DNA of 64,000 bases, taken from Escherichia coli (GTDB taxonomy: Bacteria > Pseudomonadota > Gammaproteobacteria > Enterobacterales > Enterobacteriaceae). The translations under genes and the position numbers were made by a program. A model generated the notes under the pieces. The model did no database searches. It was not told the DNA's origin and saw only the letters and a program-made list of their open reading frames with translations. The stretch lies in the NCBI RefSeq assembly GCF_003334765.1, contig NZ_QOWT01000002.1; one strand, given 5' to 3'. Positions 2,056 through 48,322 of this stretch are shown here, piece after piece. Numbering within the stretch: the stretch's first letter is position 1; each line of letters opens with the position of its first letter.

Positions 2056-3333
2056 ATGAAAACAACAGCAAAGCTGTCGTTCATGATGTTTGTTGAATGG
2101 TTTATCTGGGGCGCGTGGTTTGTGCCATTGTGGTTGTGGTTAAGTAAAAGCGGTTTTAGTGCCGGAGAAATTGGCTGGTCGTATGCCTGTACCGCCATTG
2201 CGGCGATCCTGTCGCCAATTCTGGTTGGCTCCATCACTGACCGCTTTTTCTCGGCGCAGAAAGTGCTGGCGGTATTGATGTTCGCAGGCGCGCTGCTGAT
2301 GTATTTCGCTGCGCAACAGACCACTTTTGCCGGGTTCTTCCCGTTACTGCTGGCCTACTCGCTAACCTATATGCCGACCATTGCGCTGACTAACAGCATC
2401 GCTTTTGCCAACGTGCCGGATGTTGAGCGTGATTTCCCGCGCATTCGTGTGATGGGCACTATCGGCTGGATTGCCTCCGGTCTGGCATGTGGTTTCTTGC
2501 CGCAAATACTGGGGTATGCCGATATCTCACCGACTAACATCCCGCTGCTGATTACCGCCGGAAGTTCTGCTCTGCTCGGTGTGTTTGCGTTTTTCCTGCC
2601 CGACACGCCACCAAAAAGCACCGGCAAAATGGATATTAAAGTCATGCTCGGCCTGGATGCGCTGATCCTGCTGCGCGATAAAAACTTCCTCGTCTTTTTC
2701 TTCTGTTCATTCCTGTTTGCGATGCCACTAGCGTTCTATTACATCTTTGCCAACGGTTATCTGACCGAAGTTGGCATGAAAAACGCCACCGGCTGGATGA
2801 CGCTCGGCCAGTTCTCTGAAATCTTCTTTATGCTGGCATTGCCGTTTTTCACTAAACGCTTTGGTATCAAAAAGGTATTATTGCTTGGTCTGGTCACCGC
2901 TGCGATCCGCTATGGCTTCTTTATTTACGGTAGTGCGGATGAATATTTCACCTACGCGTTACTGTTCCTCGGTATTTTGCTTCACGGCGTAAGTTACGAT
3001 TTTTACTACGTTACCGCTTACATCTATGTCGATAAAAAAGCCCCCGTGCATATGCGTACCGCTGCGCAGGGGCTGATCACGCTCTGCTGCCAGGGCTTCG
3101 GCAGTTTGCTCGGCTATCGTCTTGGCGGTGTGATGATGGAAAAGATGTTCGCTTATCAGGAACCGGTAAACGGACTGACTTTCAACTGGTCCGGGATGTG
3201 GACTTTCGGCGCGGTGATGATTGCCATTATCGCCGTGCTGTTCATGATTTTTTTCCGCGAATCCGACAACGAAATTACGGCTATCAAGGTCGATGATCGC
3301 GATATTGCGTTGACACAAGGGGAAGTTAAATGA
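2056..3333 (+). CDS. yegT: Nucleoside permease, NupG/XapB-family MFS transporter
   Basis: 425-aa ORF, highly hydrophobic multi-TM protein; position and sequence consistent with E. coli YegT. Confidence 0.88.
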   Translation: MKTTAKLSFMMFVEWFIWGAWFVPLWLWLSKSGFSAGEIGWSYACTAIAAILSPILVGSITDRFFSAQKVLAVLMFAGALLMYFAAQQTTFAGFFPLLLAYSLTYMPTIALTNSIAFANVPDVERDFPRIRVMGTIGWIASGLACGFLPQILGYADISPTNIPLLITAGSSALLGVFAFFLPDTPPKSTGKMDIKVMLGLDALILLRDKNFLVFFFCSFLFAMPLAFYYIFANGYLTEVGMKNATGWMTLGQFSEIFFMLALPFFTKRFGIKKVLLLGLVTAAIRYGFFIYGSADEYFTYALLFLGILLHGVSYDFYYVTAYIYVDKKAPVHMRTAAQGLITLCCQGFGSLLGYRLGGVMMEKMFAYQEPVNGLTFNWSGMWTFGAVMIAIIAVLFMIFFRESDNEITAIKVDDRDIALTQGEVK

Positions 3334-4334
3334 AAACAGAACGTATTCTCGGTGCTCTTTATGGGCAGGCGTTAGGGGATGCGATGGGGATGCCCTCCGA
3401 GCTTTGGCCACGCAGCCGCGTTAAAGCACACTTTGGCTGGATTGACCGTTTTCTTCCTGGACCAAAGGAGAATAACGCGGCCTGTTATTTTAACCGCGCC
3501 GAATTCACCGACGATACCTCGATGGCGCTGTGTCTGGCGGATGCGTTACTGGAACGTGAAGGCAAGATCGATCCGGATCTGATTGGGCGTAATATTCTCG
3601 ACTGGGCGCTGCGTTTCGACGCCTTTAACAAAAACGTACTAGGTCCGACCTCGAAGATTGCGCTTAACGCCATTCGCGACGGTAAACCCGTTGCTGAACT
3701 GGAAAACAACGGCGTGACCAACGGCGCAGCGATGCGCGTCTCGCCATTAGGTTGTTTGCTTCCGGCGCGTGATGTTGATTCCTTTATTGATGATGTAGCG
3801 CTGGCGTCCAGCCCGACCCATAAATCCGATCTGGCGGTTGCAGGCGCGGTAGTCATCGCATGGGCGATTTCTCGTGCCATTGACGGAGAAAGCTGGTCAG
3901 CGATTGTTGATTCCCTGCCTTCAATTGCGCGACATGCACAGCAAAAACGCATCACTACGTTCAGCGCCTCACTGGCGGCGCGGCTGGAGATTGCGCTGAA
4001 AATTGTGCGCAATGCCGACGGCACCGAATCCGCCAGCGAACAGCTTTACCAGGTCGTTGGCGCAGGTACCAGCACTATTGAGTCCGTTCCGTGCGCCATT
4101 GCGCTGGTTGAACTGGCACAAACCGACCCGAATCGCTGCGCCGTCCTGTGCGCTAACCTTGGCGGCGACACAGACACCATCGGTGCTATGGCGACGGCAA
4201 TTTGCGGCGCGTTGCATGGCGTTAACGCTATCGATCCTGCGTTAAAGGCGGAACTGGATGCGGTAAATCAGCTTGATTTCAACCGCTATGCCACAGCGCT
4301 GGCGAAATATCGTCAACAACGGGAGGCGGTATGA
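3330..4334 (+). CDS. yegU: ADP-ribosylglycohydrolase-family protein
   Basis: 334-aa ORF; ATGA start/stop overlap with yegT; N-terminal GQALGDAMGMP motif typical of ADP-ribosylglycohydrolases. Confidence 0.85.
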   Translation: MKTERILGALYGQALGDAMGMPSELWPRSRVKAHFGWIDRFLPGPKENNAACYFNRAEFTDDTSMALCLADALLEREGKIDPDLIGRNILDWALRFDAFNKNVLGPTSKIALNAIRDGKPVAELENNGVTNGAAMRVSPLGCLLPARDVDSFIDDVALASSPTHKSDLAVAGAVVIAWAISRAIDGESWSAIVDSLPSIARHAQQKRITTFSASLAARLEIALKIVRNADGTESASEQLYQVVGAGTSTIESVPCAIALVELAQTDPNRCAVLCANLGGDTDTIGAMATAICGALHGVNAIDPALKAELDAVNQLDFNRYATALAKYRQQREAV

Positions 4335-8544: not shown

Positions 8545-8680
8545 CCTGCCATAACGTGAAGAAGCAATGACCTGGTGGTCCGTGACTTCCCTACGCTGGC
8601 ATTATCCAGATCAGGTGATACGGGTATTTCTCAGCCTTCACGCAGAAGGGCACCCCGAGTCGTTTGGTTGCGATGATAAA
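8545..8680 (-). promoter_or_regulatory. TPP (thi-box) riboswitch in the thiM 5' leader
   Basis: Minus strand reads GGGGUGCCCUUCUGCGUGAAGGCUGAGAAAUACCCGUAUCACCUGAUCUGGAUAAUGCCAGCGUAGGGAAGUCACG, the classic E. coli thiM TPP aptamer with the CUGAGA core, immediately upstream of the thiM AUG. Confidence 0.88.
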
Positions 8681-19708: not shown

Positions 19709-22700
19709 ATGAGACACTTTATCTATCAGGACGAAAAATCACATAAATTCTGGGCGGTGGAGCAACAGGGAAACGAGTTGCATATCAGTTGGGGAAAAGT
19801 TGGCACCAAAGGGCAAAGTCAGATAAAAAGTTTTTCAGATGCTGCGGCAGCGGAAAAAGCGGAACTTAAGCTGATTGCGGAGAAGGTGAAGAAGGGGTAT
19901 GTGGAGCAAGCGAAGGATAATTCTTTGCAACCTTCCCAAACGGTAACGGGCTCTCTCAAGGTAGCGGACTTATCCACCATTATTCAGGAACAACCCTCTT
20001 TCGTAGCAGAAACCCGTGCGCCTGACAAAAATACAGATGCTGTTTTACCGTGGCTGGCGAAAGATATTGCTGTCGTTTTTCCGCCCGAAGTTGTACACAC
20101 CACGTTAAGTCATCGCCGCTTTCCCGGAGTTCCTGTTCAGCAAGCAGACAAATTGACCCAATTACGTCGCTTAGCCTGTAGTGTGTCGCAACGGGATAAT
20201 AAAACAGCCACATTTGACTTCAGCGCCTGTTCTTTAGAATGGCAAAACACCGTCGCCCAGGCGATCAGTCAGATCGACGGCCTGAAAACAACACAGTTAC
20301 CATCACCAGTAATGGCTGTACTCACGGCACTTGAAATGAAATGCACAAGATATAAAGTGCGTGAGGATGTTATGGATCAGATCGTCCAGGAAGGCGGTCT
20401 GGAATATGCTACTGATGTAATAATACACCTTCAACAGATTGATATTGAATGGGATTATGCGAATAATGTCATTATTATTCTGCCGTCTGGCATTGCACCT
20501 AGCTACTTGGAGCAATATTCCAGATTTGAATTACGCCTACGTAAACATTTATCACTGACGGAAGAGTCTCTCTGGCAAAAATGTGCACAAAAACTTATTG
20601 CCGCAATTCCACATATTCCAGAATGGCGGCAACCATTAATTGCTTTGTTATTACCCGAAAAACCAGAAATTGCACATGAAATTGCCCAGCGTCTACTGGG
20701 GCAAAAAAAATTACCCTCGCTTGAGTGGTTAAAAATAGTGGCGACTGATGAGCACATTCTTGCCTCATTAGAAAAATATCACGAACCATATGCCATTTTT
20801 GATGATTACTATTGTGGTGCGATATGGTCAGCCACCGTATTACAGGAGCAAGGTGTTGCAGCCCTGCCCCGATTTGCTCCCTATGCCGCAAGTGACTACT
20901 GCGCCGATGTGTTGCGTCATATCAATCATCCGTTCGCATTGACACTGCTTATACGTGTAGCCGGGCAAACTAAACGCTGTCACGATCGGATGACGAAAGC
21001 CATTGCTGCGTTCCCACATGCAGCAATGGCGGCACTGACGGAACTTCTTGGGCAAAAAGAAGAGAACAGTTGGCGCATTATGCTAATGACAATGCTTATC
21101 TCACAACCAGCACTGGCAGAACAGGTCATTCCCTGGCTCTCGACACCCGCAGTTGCCGTACTGAAATCATGCCAGCAACAACTGACACAGCCCTCAAACC
21201 ATGCCAGCGCCGATCTACTGCCAGCCGTAGTAGTCTCCCCTCCCTGGCTTTCGAAAAAGAAAAAATCGCCGATTCCGGTGCTGGATTTAGCGCCATTAGG
21301 CATTGAGCCAATCTGTTATCTGACAGAAGAAATCAGTAATCAACTTTTGGCGAAATATATCTGGTATTCAAAACACATCACGGTTAGCCATGAAGAAAGT
21401 ACTACCAACCTGTTGGCAAGGATGGGTTTTCAACGACGGATCGCTGGTACATATATTAAAGCTCCCGAAGCGGTAGTTGAGGCATGGCTAAATGAAGATT
21501 ATTCAACCTTACTAAGTGAATTTAAGGTGTTTCATTCACCTACCGGGCATTATTGGCAGTTGGGGATTTTGACAACATTGCCGCTGGAGAAAGCAGTAAA
21601 AGCATGGAATGCCCTTACCCTATCTCCACATACCGATACCGAATACTCCATGTTACATTTTGGACTCAAAGGGTTACCTGGGTTAGTAAACTCACTTGCA
21701 CGCTATCCACAAGAAGCCTTGCCCATCACGAATTACTTCGCAGCGAGTGAGCTGGCTCCTGCCGTCGCCCGTGCCTTCAACAAACTGAAAACGCTACGCG
21801 AAAACGCCCGTAGCTGGCTGTTGAAATACCCGGAACATGCCCTTACCGGCCTGCTGCCTGCGGCGCTCGGCAAAGCCGGTGAAGCACAGGATAACGCCCG
21901 CGCTGCCTTGCGTATGCTTACCGAAAACGGTCATCAGCCATTACTGCAAGAAATCGCCCGACGTTATAACCAGCCGGAAGTAACCGATGCGGTGAACGCT
22001 CTGCTTGCGCTCGATCCCTTAGATAATCACCCGACAAAAATCCCCACTCTTCCGGCCTTTTATCAGCCATCGCTCTGGACGCGCCCGGTATTAAAAGCAA
22101 ATGCCCAATCACTGCCAGATAGCGCCCTCCTCCACCTCGGTGAAATGCTCCGCTTCCCTCAGGAAGAGGCTCTGTATCCGGGATTATTGCAGGTGAAAGA
22201 CGTCTGTTCCGCCGACTCACTGGCGGGATTTGCCTGGGATCTGTTTACCGCCTGGCAGACCGCTGGCGCGCCGTCGAAAGAGAGTTGGGCGTTCACTGCG
22301 TTAGGCGTTCTCGGTAACGATGACACCGCCCGCAAACTGACGCCATTAATACGCGCCTGGCCTGGTGAATCCCAGCATAAACGCGCCACCGTTGGGTTGG
22401 ATATTCTCGCTGCTATCGGTAGTGATATCGCCCTTATGCAGCTTAACGGCATCGCCCAGAAACTGAAATTCAAAGCATTACAGGAGCGGGCAAAAGAAAA
22501 AATTGCCGACATTGCCGAGAGCCGCGAACTCACGGTGGCGGAGCTTGAAGATCGGTTAGCACCGGATCTCGGTCTGGATGATAACGGTTCGCTGCTGCTG
22601 GATTTTGGCCCACGGCAGTTCACCGTCAGCTTTGATGAAACCTTAAAACCGTTTGTGCGTGATGTTTCCGGCAGCCGCCTGAAAGACCTGCCCAAACCGA

Positions 22701-23503
22701 ACAAAAGCGATGATGAAACGCGGGCGAACGATGCGGTTAACCGCTACAAATTGCTGAAAAAAGATGCGCGTACCATCGCCGCCCAGCAGGTAGCAAGGCT
22801 GGAATCCGCCATGTGCCTGCGCCGCCGCTGGTCGCTGGAAAACTTCCAGCTCTTCCTGGTTGAGCATCCGCTGGTTCGTCACTTAACCCGCCGTCTGATT
22901 TGGGGCGTTTATAGCGCCGAAAACCAGCTACTGGCTTGCTTTCGCGTAGCAGAAGATAACAGCTCCAGCACCGCTGACGATGATCTTTTCACCCTGCCGG
23001 AAGGCGATATCTCTATCGGCACTCCTCACGTTCTGGAAATATCACCAACGGATGCTGCCGCCTTTGGTCAGCTTTTTGCCGACTACGAACTGCTACCACC
23101 GTTCCGCCAGCTCGACCGTAACAGCTACGCCCTGACAGAAGCCGAGCGCAATGCCAGTGAACTGACCCGCTGGGCAGGCAGAAAATGCCCGAGTGGTCGG
23201 GTCATGGGGCTGGCGAATAAAGGCTGGATAAAGGGCGAACCACAGGATGGAGGCTGGATCGGATGGATGATCAAACCTTTGGGTCGCTGGTCGTTAATCA
23301 TGGAAATCGATGAAGGCTTTGCGGTAGGCATGTCGCCAGCCGAACTCAGCGCTGAGCAGCTCTTAAGCAAGCTGTGGCTATGGGAAGGCAAAGCAGAAAG
23401 ATATGGCTGGGGGAGTAATTCAACACAGGAAGCGCAGTTCTCCGTAATCGATGCCATCACCGCCAGCGAGCTAATTAACGATATTGAAGCCCTGTTTGAA
23501 TAA
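19709..23503 (+). CDS. molR: MolR: N-terminal WGR domain fused to a large YehI-like (DUF4132-type) body; intact 1264-aa form
   Basis: Single uninterrupted ORF; N-terminus MRHFIYQDEKSHKFWAVEQQGNELHISWGKVGTKGQ has the WGR signature; the remainder aligns by eye with YehI. Confidence 0.85.
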   Translation: MRHFIYQDEKSHKFWAVEQQGNELHISWGKVGTKGQSQIKSFSDAAAAEKAELKLIAEKVKKGYVEQAKDNSLQPSQTVTGSLKVADLSTIIQEQPSFVAETRAPDKNTDAVLPWLAKDIAVVFPPEVVHTTLSHRRFPGVPVQQADKLTQLRRLACSVSQRDNKTATFDFSACSLEWQNTVAQAISQIDGLKTTQLPSPVMAVLTALEMKCTRYKVREDVMDQIVQEGGLEYATDVIIHLQQIDIEWDYANNVIIILPSGIAPSYLEQYSRFELRLRKHLSLTEESLWQKCAQKLIAAIPHIPEWRQPLIALLLPEKPEIAHEIAQRLLGQKKLPSLEWLKIVATDEHILASLEKYHEPYAIFDDYYCGAIWSATVLQEQGVAALPRFAPYAASDYCADVLRHINHPFALTLLIRVAGQTKRCHDRMTKAIAAFPHAAMAALTELLGQKEENSWRIMLMTMLISQPALAEQVIPWLSTPAVAVLKSCQQQLTQPSNHASADLLPAVVVSPPWLSKKKKSPIPVLDLAPLGIEPICYLTEEISNQLLAKYIWYSKHITVSHEESTTNLLARMGFQRRIAGTYIKAPEAVVEAWLNEDYSTLLSEFKVFHSPTGHYWQLGILTTLPLEKAVKAWNALTLSPHTDTEYSMLHFGLKGLPGLVNSLARYPQEALPITNYFAASELAPAVARAFNKLKTLRENARSWLLKYPEHALTGLLPAALGKAGEAQDNARAALRMLTENGHQPLLQEIARRYNQPEVTDAVNALLALDPLDNHPTKIPTLPAFYQPSLWTRPVLKANAQSLPDSALLHLGEMLRFPQEEALYPGLLQVKDVCSADSLAGFAWDLFTAWQTAGAPSKESWAFTALGVLGNDDTARKLTPLIRAWPGESQHKRATVGLDILAAIGSDIALMQLNGIAQKLKFKALQERAKEKIADIAESRELTVAELEDRLAPDLGLDDNGSLLLDFGPRQFTVSFDETLKPFVRDVSGSRLKDLPKPNKSDDETRANDAVNRYKLLKKDARTIAAQQVARLESAMCLRRRWSLENFQLFLVEHPLVRHLTRRLIWGVYSAENQLLACFRVAEDNSSSTADDDLFTLPEGDISIGTPHVLEISPTDAAAFGQLFADYELLPPFRQLDRNSYALTEAERNASELTRWAGRKCPSGRVMGLANKGWIKGEPQDGGWIGWMIKPLGRWSLIMEIDEGFAVGMSPAELSAEQLLSKLWLWEGKAERYGWGSNSTQEAQFSVIDAITASELINDIEALFE

Positions 23504-23512
23504 GGAAAGAGC

Positions 23513-26500
23513 ATGGACAAGGAATTACCGTGGCTGGCGGATAACGCCCAACTGGAACTGAAATATAAAAAAGGCAAAACGCCGCTCAGTCATCGTCGCT
23601 GGCCGGGCGAACCAGTGTCCGTTATCACTGGAAGTCTCATCCAGACATTGGGTGATGAATTGCTACAAAAAGCTGAGAAGAAAAAAAACATTGTCTGGCG
23701 TTATGAGAATTTTTCACTGGAGTGGCAGTCCGCCATCACGCAGGCCATCAACTTGATCGGCGAACACAAACCCTCAATCCCGGCCCGGACAATGGCGGCG
23801 CTAGCCTGTATCGCGCAAAATGACAGCCAACAGTTGCTCGACGAAATCGTCCAACAAGAGGGGCTGGAATATGCGACTGAGGTGGTGATTGCACGCCAGT
23901 TTATTGCGCGGTGTTATGAGAGTGATCCTCTGGTAGTGACATTGCAGTATCAGGACGAGGATTATGGCTATGGTTATCGCTCAGAAACCTATAACGAATT
24001 CGATCTCCGACTGCGTAAGCATCTCTCTCTGGCAGAGGAAAGCTGCTGGCAGCGTTGCGCCGACAAACTCATTGCCGCACTACCAGGAATAACCAAAGTT
24101 CGCCGCCCTTTTATTGCGCTGATCCTCCCGGAAAAACCAGAAATAGCCAATGAGTTGGTAGGCCTTGAATGCCCGCGAACTCATTTTCATTCTAAGGAGT
24201 GGTTAAAAGTTGTTGCTAATGACCCCACAGCGGTGAGAAAACTCGAACACTACTGGAGCCAGGATATATTTAGCGATCGAGAAGCCAGCTACATGTCGCA
24301 TGAAAACCACTTCGGCTACGCGGCCTGCGCCGCCCTTTTGCGCGAACAAGGACTGGCAGCCATTCCGCGCCTCGCGATGTATGCCCATAAAGAAGATTGC
24401 GGCAGTCTGCTGGTACAAATTAACCATCCGCAAGTCATCCGCACCTTGCTACTGGTGGCTGATAAAAACAAACCCAGCCTGCAACGTGTAGCTAAATACC
24501 ATAAAAACTTCCCCCATGCGACGCTCGCCGCACTGGCAGAACTGCTGGCGTTAACAGAACCACCAGCCCGCCCTGGTTATCCAATCATCGAAGACAAAAA
24601 GCTGCCTGCACAGCAAAAAGCACGCGATGAATACTGGCGTACGCTGTTACAAACGCTGATGGCATCGCAGCCACAACTGGCAGCAGAAGTGATGCCGTGG
24701 TTAAGTACTCAACCCCAGTCAGTGCTGAAGAGTTATTTATCGGCACCGCCCAAACCGGTTATTGATGGCACCGATAACAGCAATCTGCCAGAAATCCTCG
24801 TTTCACCACCGTGGCGTAGTAAGAAAAAAATGACAGCTCCACGTCTTGATTTGGCACCGCTCGAATTAACTCCGCAAGTTTACTGGCAACCAGGCGAACA
24901 AGAGAGGCTTGCCGCCACTGAGCCTGCCCGTTATTTCAGCACGGAATCTCTTGCGCAACGCATGGAACAAAAAAGTGGACGAGTTGTATTACAGGAACTG
25001 GGTTTTGGGGATGATGTATGGCTGTTTCTGAATTATATACTCCCCGGAAAACTGGATGCTGCACGCAATTCACTCTTTGTTCAGTGGCATTACTACCAGG
25101 GGCGGGTTGAAGAGATCCTGAATGGCTGGAACTCCCCGGAAGCACAATTAGCAGAACAGGCGCTCCGCAGCGGTCACATAGAAGCGTTAATTAACATATG
25201 GGAAAATGACAACTACTCACATTATCGTCCGGAAAAGAGTGTCTGGAACCTGTATTTATTGGCACAGTTGCCGCGTGAGATGGCTTTGACCTTCTGGCTG
25301 CGTATCAATGAGAAAAAGCATCTGTTCGCGGGTGAGGACTATTTTCTCAGTATCCTCGGATTGGATGCGCTACCAGGTCTGCTGTTGGCTTTTTCACATC
25401 GTCCAAAAGAAACATTTCCGTTAATTTTAAATTTTGGCGCAACAGAACTGGCGCTGCCTGTTGCCCACGTCTGGCGACGTTTCGCGGCGCAGCGTGATCT
25501 GGCTCGCCAGTGGATTTTACAATGGCCGGAACATACGGCTAGTGCACTTATCCCTCTTGTCTTTACCAAACCCAGCGATAATAGCGAAGCCGCATTACTT
25601 GCCCTGCGTTTACTGTACGAACAGGGACATGGCGAATTGCTACAAACCGTGGCAAACCGCTGGCAGCGTACAGATGTATGGTCTGCCCTGGAGCAGTTGC
25701 TTAAACAGGATCCAATGGACATTTACCCGGCACGCATTCCAAAAGCCCCTGATTTCTGGCATCCGGCAATGTGGTCCAGGCCTCGACTTATCACTAATAA
25801 TCAGCCTGTTACCGGTGACGCTCTGGAAATTATCGGCGAAATGCTGCGCTTTACCCAGGGGGGACGTTTTTATAGCGGGCTGGAACAACTGAAAACGTTC
25901 TGCCAGCCACAAACGCTGGCAGCTTTTGCCTGGGATCTCTTCACTGCGTGGCAACAAGCTGGTGCCCCCGCAAAAGACAACTGGGCATTTCTGGCGTTAA
26001 GTCTCTTTGGTGACGAAAGCACGGCACGGGATCTGACGACACAGATCCTCGCCTGGCCACAAGAAGGCAAATCTGCCCGTGCTGTCAGCGGCCTGAACAT
26101 CCTTACCCTGATGAATAATGATATGGCGCTGATACAGCTGCATCATATATCGCAACGGGCTAAATCCCGCCCCTTACGTGATAACGCGGCGGAATTTCTT
26201 CAGGTGGTCGCAGAAAATCGCGGGCTAAGCCAGGAAGAGCTAGCGGACAGATTAGTCCCAACCCTGGGCCTTGATGATCCGCAGGCGTTGAGTTTTGATT
26301 TTGGTCCCCGGCAGTTTACCGTTCGCTTCGATGAAAACCTCAACCCGGTTATCTTTGATCAGCAAAACGTTCGCCAGAAAAGCGTTCCCCGTTTGCGCGC
26401 CGATGACGATCAACTGAAAGCGCCCGAGGCACTGACCCGACTAAAAGGGCTAAAAAAAGATGCTACTCAGGTGAGCAAAAACCTGCTCCCGCGTCTTGAA

Positions 26501-27145
26501 GCTGCCCTACGTACCACCCGACGCTGGTCGCTGGCAGATTTTCATTCTCTGTTTGTTAATCATCCCTTTACCCGTCTGGTTACCCAGCGATTAATATGGG
26601 GGGGTTATCCGGCAAATGAACCGCGTCGTTTACTCAACGCCTTTCGTGTGGCCGCAGAGGGGGAGTTCTGCAATGCGCAAGATGAGCCAATTGACCTGCC
26701 TGCGGACGCTCTGATTGGCATTGCCCACCCGTTAGAAATGGCAGTAGAAATGCGCAGTGAATTTGCACAGCTTTTTGCCGATTACGAAATTATGCCGCCT
26801 TTTCGCCAGTTGTCGCGCCGCACGGTGCTGCTCACACCTGACGAGTCAACCAGTAACAGCCTGACTCGCTGGGAAGGTAAATCCGCTACCGTTGGGCAAC
26901 TTATGGGAATGCGATACAAAGGCTGGGAGTCAGGCTATGAGGACACATTTGTCTATGACCTGGGCGAGTACCGGCTGGTCCTTAAGTTTTCACCCGGTTT
27001 TAACCACTACAATGTTGATAGCAAAGCGTTAATGAGCTGCCGTTCTCTTCGAGTGTACCGTGACAATAAATCCGTCACTTTTGCCGAACTTGATGTGTTT
27101 GATTTGAGTGAGGCGTTAAGCGCACCTGACGTCATTTTCCATTAA
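23513..27145 (+). CDS. yehI: YehI, large DUF4132-family protein, paralogue of the MolR body (no WGR domain)
   Basis: 1210-aa ORF starting 9 nt after the molR stop with RBS aggaaaga; multiple blocks conserved with MolR. Confidence 0.85.
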   Translation: MDKELPWLADNAQLELKYKKGKTPLSHRRWPGEPVSVITGSLIQTLGDELLQKAEKKKNIVWRYENFSLEWQSAITQAINLIGEHKPSIPARTMAALACIAQNDSQQLLDEIVQQEGLEYATEVVIARQFIARCYESDPLVVTLQYQDEDYGYGYRSETYNEFDLRLRKHLSLAEESCWQRCADKLIAALPGITKVRRPFIALILPEKPEIANELVGLECPRTHFHSKEWLKVVANDPTAVRKLEHYWSQDIFSDREASYMSHENHFGYAACAALLREQGLAAIPRLAMYAHKEDCGSLLVQINHPQVIRTLLLVADKNKPSLQRVAKYHKNFPHATLAALAELLALTEPPARPGYPIIEDKKLPAQQKARDEYWRTLLQTLMASQPQLAAEVMPWLSTQPQSVLKSYLSAPPKPVIDGTDNSNLPEILVSPPWRSKKKMTAPRLDLAPLELTPQVYWQPGEQERLAATEPARYFSTESLAQRMEQKSGRVVLQELGFGDDVWLFLNYILPGKLDAARNSLFVQWHYYQGRVEEILNGWNSPEAQLAEQALRSGHIEALINIWENDNYSHYRPEKSVWNLYLLAQLPREMALTFWLRINEKKHLFAGEDYFLSILGLDALPGLLLAFSHRPKETFPLILNFGATELALPVAHVWRRFAAQRDLARQWILQWPEHTASALIPLVFTKPSDNSEAALLALRLLYEQGHGELLQTVANRWQRTDVWSALEQLLKQDPMDIYPARIPKAPDFWHPAMWSRPRLITNNQPVTGDALEIIGEMLRFTQGGRFYSGLEQLKTFCQPQTLAAFAWDLFTAWQQAGAPAKDNWAFLALSLFGDESTARDLTTQILAWPQEGKSARAVSGLNILTLMNNDMALIQLHHISQRAKSRPLRDNAAEFLQVVAENRGLSQEELADRLVPTLGLDDPQALSFDFGPRQFTVRFDENLNPVIFDQQNVRQKSVPRLRADDDQLKAPEALTRLKGLKKDATQVSKNLLPRLEAALRTTRRWSLADFHSLFVNHPFTRLVTQRLIWGGYPANEPRRLLNAFRVAAEGEFCNAQDEPIDLPADALIGIAHPLEMAVEMRSEFAQLFADYEIMPPFRQLSRRTVLLTPDESTSNSLTRWEGKSATVGQLMGMRYKGWESGYEDTFVYDLGEYRLVLKFSPGFNHYNVDSKALMSCRSLRVYRDNKSVTFAELDVFDLSEALSAPDVIFH

Positions 27146-27205
27146 AACACAGCGGGCAGTGATGCGACTGCCCGTTATCTACACGACTTACCAGCGGGGA
27201 AAGCG

Positions 27206-27523
27206 ATGATCGTGCAAAAAGAGCTGGTTGCTATTTACGATTATGAGGTCCCTGTACCTGAAGATCCGTTTTCCTTCAGACTTGAGATCCATAAATGCCC
27301 TGAATTATTTACAGGTTCCGTCTATCGACTGGAGCGATTCCGGCTACATCCAACATTTCATCAACGTGATCGAGAAGATGCTGACCCGCTAATAAATGAT
27401 GCGTTGATTTATATAAGAGATGAGTGTAATGATGAGCGGAAATTACGAGGTGAATCACCTGAAACTGTAATAGCAATTTTTAATCGTGAACTACAGAATA
27501 TATTCAACCAAGAAATAGAATAA
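27206..27523 (+). CDS. yehK: Small protein of unknown function
   Basis: 105-aa ORF MIVQKELVAIYDYEVPVPEDPF...; lies between yehI and a terminator. Confidence 0.7.
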   Translation: MIVQKELVAIYDYEVPVPEDPFSFRLEIHKCPELFTGSVYRLERFRLHPTFHQRDREDADPLINDALIYIRDECNDERKLRGESPETVIAIFNRELQNIFNQEIE

Positions 27524-27692
27524 TATACTCTAAATAATTCAAATTGGTCCGATCCGGCGCAACGTCCCAATGGCCTGGATTATAAATCTCATTATCTTAA
27601 TTGCAACGGGGTCCAGCCGTGGTTATAATTCGTTCGTTGGAACACGATGTTGCACAGGCTGCGGTGTTGGGCCTGAAAATAGTAAATAAAAG

Positions 27693-27719
27693 AACCTGCC
27701 TCACCAGCAGGTTTTTTTA
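27693..27719 (+). terminator. Intrinsic terminator after yehK
   Basis: CCTGC-ctcacca-GCAGG stem followed by TTTTTTT. Confidence 0.6.
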
Positions 27720-27829
27720 TTTACTGTGATCTGCTTTCCAGATATTTTCCGCTCAAACAACTAATGCGCCAAACATTTATTGCGCGTAAAATATCGTTTA
27801 TTTCATTAATACATTTCAGGGATGAATAT

Positions 27830-28918
27830 ATGTCACCGCAGAATAATCATCTGCAGCGTCCGCCTGCCGCTGTGTTATACGCCGATGAACTGGCAAAATT
27901 AAAACAAAATGATAACGCACCTTGCCCGCCCGGTTGGCAGTTAAGTTTGCCTGCGGCCCGTGCTTTTATCCTTGGCGATAGCGCGCAAAATATTAGCCGT
28001 AAAGTGGTGATTAGTCCCTCTGCTGTCGAACGTATGTTAGTCACTCTTGCCACCGGGCGCGGTTTGATGTTGGTGGGGGAACCTGGCACCGCAAAATCTC
28101 TCCTGTCTGAATTACTGGCAACCGCTATTAGCGGCGATGCCGGGTTAACCATCCAGGGCGGGGCATCTACCACCGAAGATCAAATCAAGTATGGCTGGAA
28201 CTACGCCCTGCTTATCAATCATGGTCCGTCAACGGAAGCGCTGGTCCCTGCCCCGCTTTATCAGGGAATGCGCGACGGCAAAATCGTCCGTTTTGAAGAG
28301 ATAACGCGTACACCGCTGGAAGTGCAAGACTGTCTGTTAGGTATGCTTTCTGACCGGGTTATGACGGTGCCGGAACTCACCAGTGAAGCCAGTCAGCTCT
28401 ATGCGCGAGAAGGCTTTAATATTATTGCCACTGCCAATACCCGCGATCGCGGCGTCAATGAGATGAGTGCCGCGCTAAAGCGTCGCTTCGATTTTGAAAC
28501 TGTCTTTCCGATTATGGATTTCGCCCAGGAGCTGGAACTGGTCGCCAGTGCTTCGGCGCGTTTGCTGGCCCATAGCGGTATTCCGCATAAAGTGCCTGAC
28601 GCGGTACTGGAGTTACTGGTCCGCACCTTCCGCGATCTGCGTGCCAACGGCGAAAAGAAAACGTCAATGGATACCCTGACGGCAATTATGTCCACCGCTG
28701 AAGCCGTGAACGTGGCCCACGCAGTGGGCGTCCGCGCCTGGTTTTTAGCGAATCGCGCAGGTGAGCCAGCCGACCTGGTGGACTGCATTGCCGGAACCAT
28801 CGTCAAAGATAATGAAGAAGATCGCGCTCGTCTGCGCCGTTACTTCGAACAGCGTGTCGCCACACATAAAGAAGCTCACTGGCAGGCTTATTATCAAGCC
28901 CGCCACCGCCTGCCGTGA
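27830..28918 (+). CDS. yehL: MoxR-like AAA+ ATPase
   Basis: ORF 27764..28918; start set at MSPQNNHLQRP (362 aa); Walker A GEPGTAKS; Walker B/sensor region RFEEITRTPLEVQDCLLGML. Confidence 0.88.
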   Translation: MSPQNNHLQRPPAAVLYADELAKLKQNDNAPCPPGWQLSLPAARAFILGDSAQNISRKVVISPSAVERMLVTLATGRGLMLVGEPGTAKSLLSELLATAISGDAGLTIQGGASTTEDQIKYGWNYALLINHGPSTEALVPAPLYQGMRDGKIVRFEEITRTPLEVQDCLLGMLSDRVMTVPELTSEASQLYAREGFNIIATANTRDRGVNEMSAALKRRFDFETVFPIMDFAQELELVASASARLLAHSGIPHKVPDAVLELLVRTFRDLRANGEKKTSMDTLTAIMSTAEAVNVAHAVGVRAWFLANRAGEPADLVDCIAGTIVKDNEEDRARLRRYFEQRVATHKEAHWQAYYQARHRLP

Positions 28919-28928
28919 GGAAAGATGC

Positions 28929-48149: not shown

Positions 48150-48322
48150 GATGAGCATTCAGATAGTGGTTCACGCGCACGGGTTGCGCACCGCCGGAGT
48201 AAGGATTTACTGAGGCTAGCGACGCCATCATAACGAGCAAAAAGTGCGATCGTCAAAGGAGAATCGTGAGGAAATGCTGCATTGCTGACATTTACGCCAG
48301 CAATGCAACGTCAAAGAACTTT

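Follow-up and report, generated by a model that had tools for sequence, protein, structure and literature searches.

The 306-nt spacer between yehK and yehL (27524-27829) in the 64,000-nucleotide stretch of Escherichia coli DNA analyzed here (the window) holds a complete small-RNA gene, orzP, rather than a yehK 3′ UTR followed by a yehL leader. Very probably, this spacer is the orz-only remnant of a zor-orz type I toxin-antitoxin module whose OrzP RNA is now an orphan, while the hairpin between yehI and yehK is a separate element under selection. A first-pass annotation of the raw sequence had proposed two transcription units, molR-yehI(-yehK) and yehLMPQ. Instead there are three, molR-yehI-yehK, orzP and yehLMPQ, since the promoter-driven orzP lies between the other two. 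The same annotation had put the spacer at about 300 nt and suggested that it might hold a small RNA, which proved right.

The window carries the molR-yehI-yehK-yehLMPQ cluster of E. coli. From the ORF list, molR (19709-23503) is followed on the plus strand by yehI, which encodes a 1210-aa DUF4132 protein (23513-27145), by yehK (105 aa, 27206-27523) and by yehL, the first gene of yehLMPQ, which encodes a 362-aa MoxR-type AAA+ ATPase (27830-28918; start as in RefSeq for K-12 and others). These calls agree with RefSeq for E. coli records of identical or nearly identical sequence, including K-12, and the yehI-yehK gap measures 60 nt (27146-27205), the length already reported for it. An 801-nt query around the region under study was 100% identical to strain 214-4 and matched 5248 of 5426 complete E. 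coli genomes, and an orz-containing query found a single place in the 100%-identical genome. We observed that molR is intact here, with a 1264-aa ORF, where the K-12 MG1655 annotation of the same region lists yehF and a pseudogene, yehH. None of MolR, YehI, YehK, YehL, YehM, YehP (VWA) and YehQ (SWIM) matched a PADLOC defense model (19709-34337), and a literature search on the function of yehLMPQ returned nothing relevant.

YehK evolves fast for this cluster, with non-synonymous codon differences at least as numerous as synonymous ones (3:0 and 6:0 in comparisons among E. coli; 10:10 and 24:19 in comparisons with other Escherichia), unlike YehL, which is about 99% identical at the protein level. 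The yehK gene is frameshifted in strain JJ1886, and in several strains its product has another length or is labeled ‘hypothetical protein’. A YehK search of genome contigs returned only three Escherichia loci from outside E. coli.

The evidence for orzP begins with an Rfam scan, in which RF02083, the OrzO-P family, matched the plus strand at 27643-27718 with 101.3 bits (E = 2e−17) against a gathering score of 60 bits. The match covers model positions 1-76 of 76 without truncation and is the only one to this family in the 64-kb window, and its site, between yehI/yehK and yehL, is the chromosomal site of the family in Escherichia. Upstream lies a promoter with a −35 TTGCAA at 27601-27606, a 17-nt spacer and a −10 TATAAT at 27624-27629 (plus strand, promoter scan). 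Given a −10 element that ends at 27629, the predicted start is near G27636, and alignment to other OrzP and OrzO copies likewise outlines an antitoxin gene of about 84 nt at 27636-27719. This predicted length agrees with the roughly 85 nt published for sRNAs of this family (PMC2887945), and the gene has both its own promoter and an intrinsic terminator. The 5′ end of the RNA (27636-27655), which in a complete module serves as the seed that pairs with the zorP mRNA, reads GUUGGAACACGAUGUUGCAC, the OrzP type and not the OrzO type.

Other signals in and around the spacer were set aside. Weak Rfam matches to the Thr, Trp and Phe leaders and to STnc370 all fell on the orzP terminator hairpin, far below their cut-offs, and are look-alikes. 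A 39-aa ORF at 27570-27689 was treated as spurious, having no Shine-Dalgarno sequence, an ATG that is absent in EHEC copies and an overlap with the promoters and orz; a 42-aa ORF at 27601-27729, which also overlaps the promoters and orz, was treated in the same way. The remaining above-threshold Rfam matches in the window are all on the minus strand and comprise two naRNA4 (REP-type) elements (646-716 and 59883-59960), a TPP riboswitch (8571-8667) and a Peptidase-S11 RNA motif (48154-48234).

The intrinsic terminator of orzP occupies 27693-27719 on the plus strand, exactly the coordinates assigned to a canonical terminator in the first-pass annotation. Its stem pairs 27693-27699 with 27707-27713 around a CTCACCA loop and can be extended from 7 to 13 pairs, and its seven T's (U7) lie at 27712-27718. 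Located 170 nt beyond the yehK stop codon, it forms the second hairpin of the RF02083 model. A simple consensus scan flagged this hairpin on the minus strand only, probably due to pairing between an A-run and the T-run that takes up the T tail, so its function on the plus strand rests on the Rfam structure match together with K-12 Term-seq. In the curated K-12 Term-seq set of Adams et al. 2021 (PMC7815308), the only plus-strand 3′ ends listed for 2.193-2.212 Mb (about 19 kb) are 2204485 and 2204446, both classed as ‘orphan’; the Rho-dependence column, shown for 2204446 alone, reads ‘No’. Anchored on the yehL ATG (K-12 2204596 = window 27830), 2204485 falls at window 27719, the base after the U-run, and 2204446 at 27680. 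A 3′ end therefore exists in vivo, in another strain (K-12), at the point near 27719 where the first-pass annotation expected one. It belongs to the unannotated sRNA and not to yehK. The terminator that had been placed ‘after yehK’ is thus functional and does separate the upstream from the downstream yeh genes; it is orzP's and not yehK's own. It would also be the first stop for read-through out of molR-yehI-yehK. The second K-12 end lies inside OrzP, just past the first stem-loop, and suggests a shorter form of about 45 nt, produced by processing or by premature termination.

The locus and its RNA have been described before. Fozo et al. 2010 placed z3289/z3290 and their sRNAs between yehI and yehL (PMC2887945), and Wen et al. 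[quoted passage not shown] A 2024 study in mSystems reported that orz-only strains, with 27-29 nt of the zor 5′ UTR still in place, account for about 30% of E. coli, that both promoters have the hexamers TTGCAA/TATAAT, 99-100% conserved in orz-only loci (its Table 3), and that MG1655 is itself orz-only, its OrzPmg RNA being detected by northern blot and dRNA-seq and the northern signal being lost in a promoter/5′ deletion mutant (PMC11264685). The window is very close to the K-12 MG1655 OrzPmg locus, with the same position between yehK and yehL, the same 306-nt spacer, the same deletion junction, which spares about 28 nt of the zor UTR, identical promoters, the same terminator and 82 of 84 transcribed bases in common. 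Three differences separate the two spacers, none in the promoters, seed or terminator: two are in the first stem-loop (window C27662 vs T and G27669 vs A) and one is past the terminator (C27749 vs T). At 27662 and 27669 the window bases match Escherichia whittamii, so the window allele is probably the older form. Because its orz promoter is identical to that of K-12, where the northern blot shows the RNA, the allele carrying C27662 and G27669 is presumably expressed as well.

What distinguishes this locus from a complete module is the loss of the toxin. In the EHEC-like strain NIID080884, the spacer is 1239 nt long and contains two tandem units, each with zor on the minus strand and orz on the plus strand, and its 29-aa minus-strand ORFs, MDTLTQKLTVLIAVLELLVALLRLIDLLK and the T3S variant of it, are ZorO and ZorP. 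From the zor promoter through orz to yehL, the window and copy 2 of this strain can be aligned base for base, and the window lacks the whole segment that runs from the yehK stop codon to about nucleotide 28 of the zor 5′ UTR. Alignment to the two zor-orz copies places the relic of the zor mRNA 5′ UTR, about 28 nt, at 27544-27571 on the minus strand, with a probable start at about 27571 judged from the published length of 174 nt for the zor 5′ UTR. The zor promoter itself is an intact relic on the minus strand (−35 TTGCAA at 27606-27601, 16-nt spacer, −10 TATAAT at 27584-27579) with 10 of 12 matches in the promoter scan and identity to EHEC copy 2; its −35 hexamer is palindromic and is shared by the divergent zor and orz promoters. 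The deletion junction lies at about 27541-27544 and shows TTCAAA/TTAAA microhomology. A deletion between short TTAAA-like repeats would thus have removed the zor ORF together with its 5′ UTR, except for about 28 nt of the latter, leaving the back-to-back promoters and the whole antitoxin gene. In strains with the complete module, the OrzP 5′ end pairs with the zorP 5′ UTR and blocks toxin synthesis; here the remaining gene would yield an OrzP-allele RNA of about 84 nt, transcribed from TTGCAA-17-TATAAT and ending at 27693-27719.

We found no Zor-like ORF in the spacer or in the whole window, where the same search recovered one in each of four comparison Escherichia (the EHEC-like strain, the cryptic-clade genomes E1V33 and MOD1-EC7003, and E. 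whittamii). A complete zor-orz module comprises a divergently oriented gene that encodes Zor, a hydrophobic toxin of 29 aa, and an Orz RNA whose 5′ end is complementary to the toxin 5′ UTR over 15-19 nt. Neither is present in the window, in which the complement of the OrzP seed, at up to 3 mismatches, matched only the orz gene itself; with no target in the 64 kb, the OrzP RNA is an orphan. RNAduplex comparison of OrzP with both strands of the whole window, the gene's own antisense excluded, gave a best non-self hit at 31026-31150 (−48.8 kcal/mol, z about −3.6 among 5112 windows) that is at chance level, and the yehL leader and yehK were unremarkable as partners. In common with the complete module, the locus has an sRNA of the same sequence and structure family, two divergent promoters and the same chromosomal position; what it lacks is the 29-aa toxin ORF with its ribosome-binding region, the site at which Orz pairs and the terminator of zor. 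It is the antitoxin half only and not a toxin-antitoxin system. In its general arrangement zor-orz has been compared with tisB/istR-1 and shoB/ohsC, in which the sRNA is likewise divergent from the toxin gene and pairs with a long toxin 5′ UTR (PMC2887945); the sequences are unrelated and the toxins different. Antitoxin-only shoB/ohsC loci are known from just two strains, compared with about 30% for orz (PMC11264685).

The orz-only state is widespread and derived. By our own count, among 5426 complete genomes 5232 carry orz and 3395 carry zor, with about 34% orz-only; sequences at least 99% identical to the window over 151 nt were found in about 329 of 5234 records. A longer spacer, of 0.6-1.2 kb, occurs in about 63% of E. 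coli genomes, where it contains either a single complete zor-orz pair or two, and zor runs convergently towards yehK. Full zor-orz modules also occupy the same site in E. whittamii (two copies) and in E1V33 and MOD1-EC7003 (one each), which makes the short spacer the derived, deleted state. The toxins outside E. coli proper are identical or near-identical 29-aa peptides, and one E. whittamii copy has the change Q6R (MDTLTRKL...). We also noted that in zor-carrying strains the distance from the yehK stop codon to the zor terminator hairpin (AGGGGGAAACGGTATTCCCCCT; 2991-3012 and 3599-3620 in locus L001), which has a weak U tail on the zor strand, is only about 65 nt, so that yehK and zor are closely convergent there and may affect one another.

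Downstream of the terminator, 110 nt (27720-27829, plus strand) precede the yehL ATG, a distance that had been estimated at roughly that figure. In two cryptic clades its identity to the window is 95-96%, whereas third codon positions of yehL reach 78-88%. It may serve as a yehL leader, a promoter or both. Its last 75 nt or so (27755-27829) are almost invariant across Escherichia species, including E. whittamii, and more so than yehL synonymous sites; an imperfect GCGC...GCGC inverted repeat lies at about 27766-27786, and the block could be an operator or promoter for yehLMPQ. A Shine-Dalgarno sequence, AGGGA, is located at 27818-27822, and a candidate −10, TAAAAT, at 27787-27792 has a poor −35; no site in the 110 nt passed the consensus promoter scan. 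The Cappable-seq, SMRT-Cappable-seq and Kim 2012 tables contained no entry for yehL or yehK start sites or operon calls. Since the orzP terminator would end the read-out from molR-yehI-yehK, yehLMPQ would have to run from a weak-consensus promoter, probably within these 110 nt, or from read-through. An in-frame ATG at 27764 was rejected as the yehL start: it has no Shine-Dalgarno sequence, the codons that it would add include the rare ATA and AGG, and the differences seen there are 3 non-synonymous vs 1 synonymous.

The hairpin in the yehI-yehK gap is a distinct element. The first-pass annotation had recognized a GC hairpin here, and it is present, about 5 nt from the position given (27153-27174, not about 27157-27180). 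Its core is CGGGCAGT-GATGCG-ACTGCCCG, with the stem formed by 27153-27160 and 27167-27174 and the loop by 27161-27166; two additional pairs bring the plus-strand stem-loop to 10 pairs at 27151-27176. It starts 8 nt after the yehI stop codon, folds at −18.3 kcal/mol (z = −5.5; none of 200 shuffles was as stable), matches no Rfam family and has no leader ORF. We compared it across 12 sequences picked for divergence, covering two cryptic clades, E. whittamii and seven further E. coli lineages that include K-12, an EHEC strain and JJ1886. None of the 16 stem columns varies, compared with 31 of the 44 other gap columns (Fisher p = 4.5e−7), the latter being made up of 5 of 6 loop positions and 26 of 38 others. 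The loop changes in sequence (GATGCG, GATGCA, GATTCG, AACCAT) and keeps its length, no variation affects the TTAT(C) 3′ of the stem, and two lineages have A-U in place of the outer G-U pair. An invariant stem with a variable loop indicates that the element is under selection. In strain R4, homology to the window stops about 20 nt past the hairpin and gives way to unrelated sequence, so that the hairpin is kept and yehK is missing or displaced.

Attenuation of yehK by this hairpin, as had been proposed, found no support. The stem is followed by UUAUCUAC and not by a U-run, and the sole competing downstream pairing, of 4-5 bp, is absent in E. whittamii, leaving no conserved alternative structure. 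Stabilizing intercistronic stem-loops and weak internal terminators occur within operons, for example the malE-malF REP hairpins. The likeness to these lies in a stable, GC-rich hairpin a few nt past the upstream stop codon, with no strong U-run, between co-oriented genes; the window hairpin is not a REP or otherwise repeated element and the resemblance is positional only. Most likely it is an intercistronic RNA stem-loop that acts as a 3′-end barrier or weak terminator, in which case it would lower yehK expression relative to yehI and would not be a switchable attenuator. K-12 Term-seq calls no 3′ end at the hairpin, but the whole operon appears to be silent there, or too weakly expressed for this absence to carry weight (PMC7815308).

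No compensatory double substitutions were seen in the stem among the 12 sequences, so selection on an RNA structure and on a DNA palindrome are indistinguishable by this comparison. It is conceivable, though we consider it unlikely, that the palindrome works instead as DNA or as a backstop terminator on the minus strand for transcripts that run from the zor promoter through yehK. As DNA, it would be a site for a dimeric regulator with 8-bp half-sites and a 6-bp spacer of free sequence, a version we hold to be similarly doubtful. Half-sites that are invariant around a spacer that varies in sequence and not in length do form an operator-like pattern, yet the palindrome is unique in the 64-kb window and there is no sign of a regulon. 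For the terminator version, the hairpin is followed on the minus strand by CUGUGUUUUA and is flagged as terminator-like by the scan, and the intact zor promoter relic points towards it. Against this, it is the plus-strand TTAT(C) flank that is invariant, the U-rich tail of the minus strand is lost in E. whittamii, and K-12 Term-seq calls no minus-strand 3′ end here (PMC7815308). The element is also GC-rich and sits between two co-oriented genes only 60 nt apart.

The two-unit architecture as originally drawn, with the terminator owned by yehK or its operon, the preceding 170 nt as yehK 3′ UTR, the following 110 nt as yehL leader and the hairpin as an attenuator of yehK, is very improbable. It draws on real features, namely a genuine terminator downstream of yehK on the same strand with a K-12 3′ end, which yehK read-through would reach, and a strong, conserved hairpin ahead of yehK. 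However, the 76 nt up to and including the terminator match a curated sRNA family over their whole length, a consensus-like promoter stands immediately upstream of them, and deletion of the promoter/5′ region in K-12 abolishes the RNA (PMC11264685). The Term-seq ends, too, are ‘orphan’ with no yehK-associated signal (PMC7815308), and the hairpin lacks the U-run, conserved alternative pairing and leader peptide of an attenuator. Ownership of the terminator by yehK is thus largely refuted, and an orz-only remnant remains the preferred reading of the spacer. A different matter is whether that remnant still does anything. It may be a dead relic, in which a recent and neutral deletion left a functionless orz whose only effect is incidental termination between two yeh operons; we regard this as a serious possibility that falls somewhat short of probable. 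OrzP has no target in the window and no local mRNA stands out as a pairing partner, and the published work reports no phenotype-defining function, its authors calling a toxin-less antitoxin harmless (PMC11264685). Yet about one E. coli genome in three is orz-only, with promoter hexamers 99-100% conserved and a highly conserved transcribed region, the RNA is expressed in K-12, and the window allele retains ancestral bases found in E. whittamii. We think it rather unlikely that the orz-only locus has been kept for a new role, acting in trans on other mRNAs or conferring immunity to incoming DNA that carries zorP, together with a zor relic that fires antisense as far as the hairpin. The relic does point into the 3′ end of yehK, and any transcript from it, with a start estimated at about 27571, would be antisense through the whole of yehK towards the hairpin. 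Such antisense transcription into yehK is a possibility suggested by the promoter sequence; the K-12 Term-seq set lists no minus-strand 3′ end in the yehK/hairpin region (PMC7815308).

The importance of these observations is mainly one of annotation. The stretch between yehK and yehL carries no annotated feature in RefSeq records, K-12 among them, so that anyone working from the annotation or from the bare sequence will take the orzP terminator to be that of yehK. At the center of the region is an orphan antitoxin sRNA gene, known from earlier work and missing from RefSeq, in itself an ordinary finding, and the new points are minor: a hairpin under selection, a conserved block upstream of yehL and possible antisense transcription from the zor promoter into yehK. 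For the biology of the locus, three transcription units replace two, and the architecture varies among strains, with a spacer of 0.3, 0.6 or 1.2 kb. If the zor relic does fire and orz-only loci are kept for a role of their own, antisense transcription from the relic and the orzP terminator would alter the expression of molR-yehI-yehK and yehLMPQ in orz-only as compared with zor-carrying strains.
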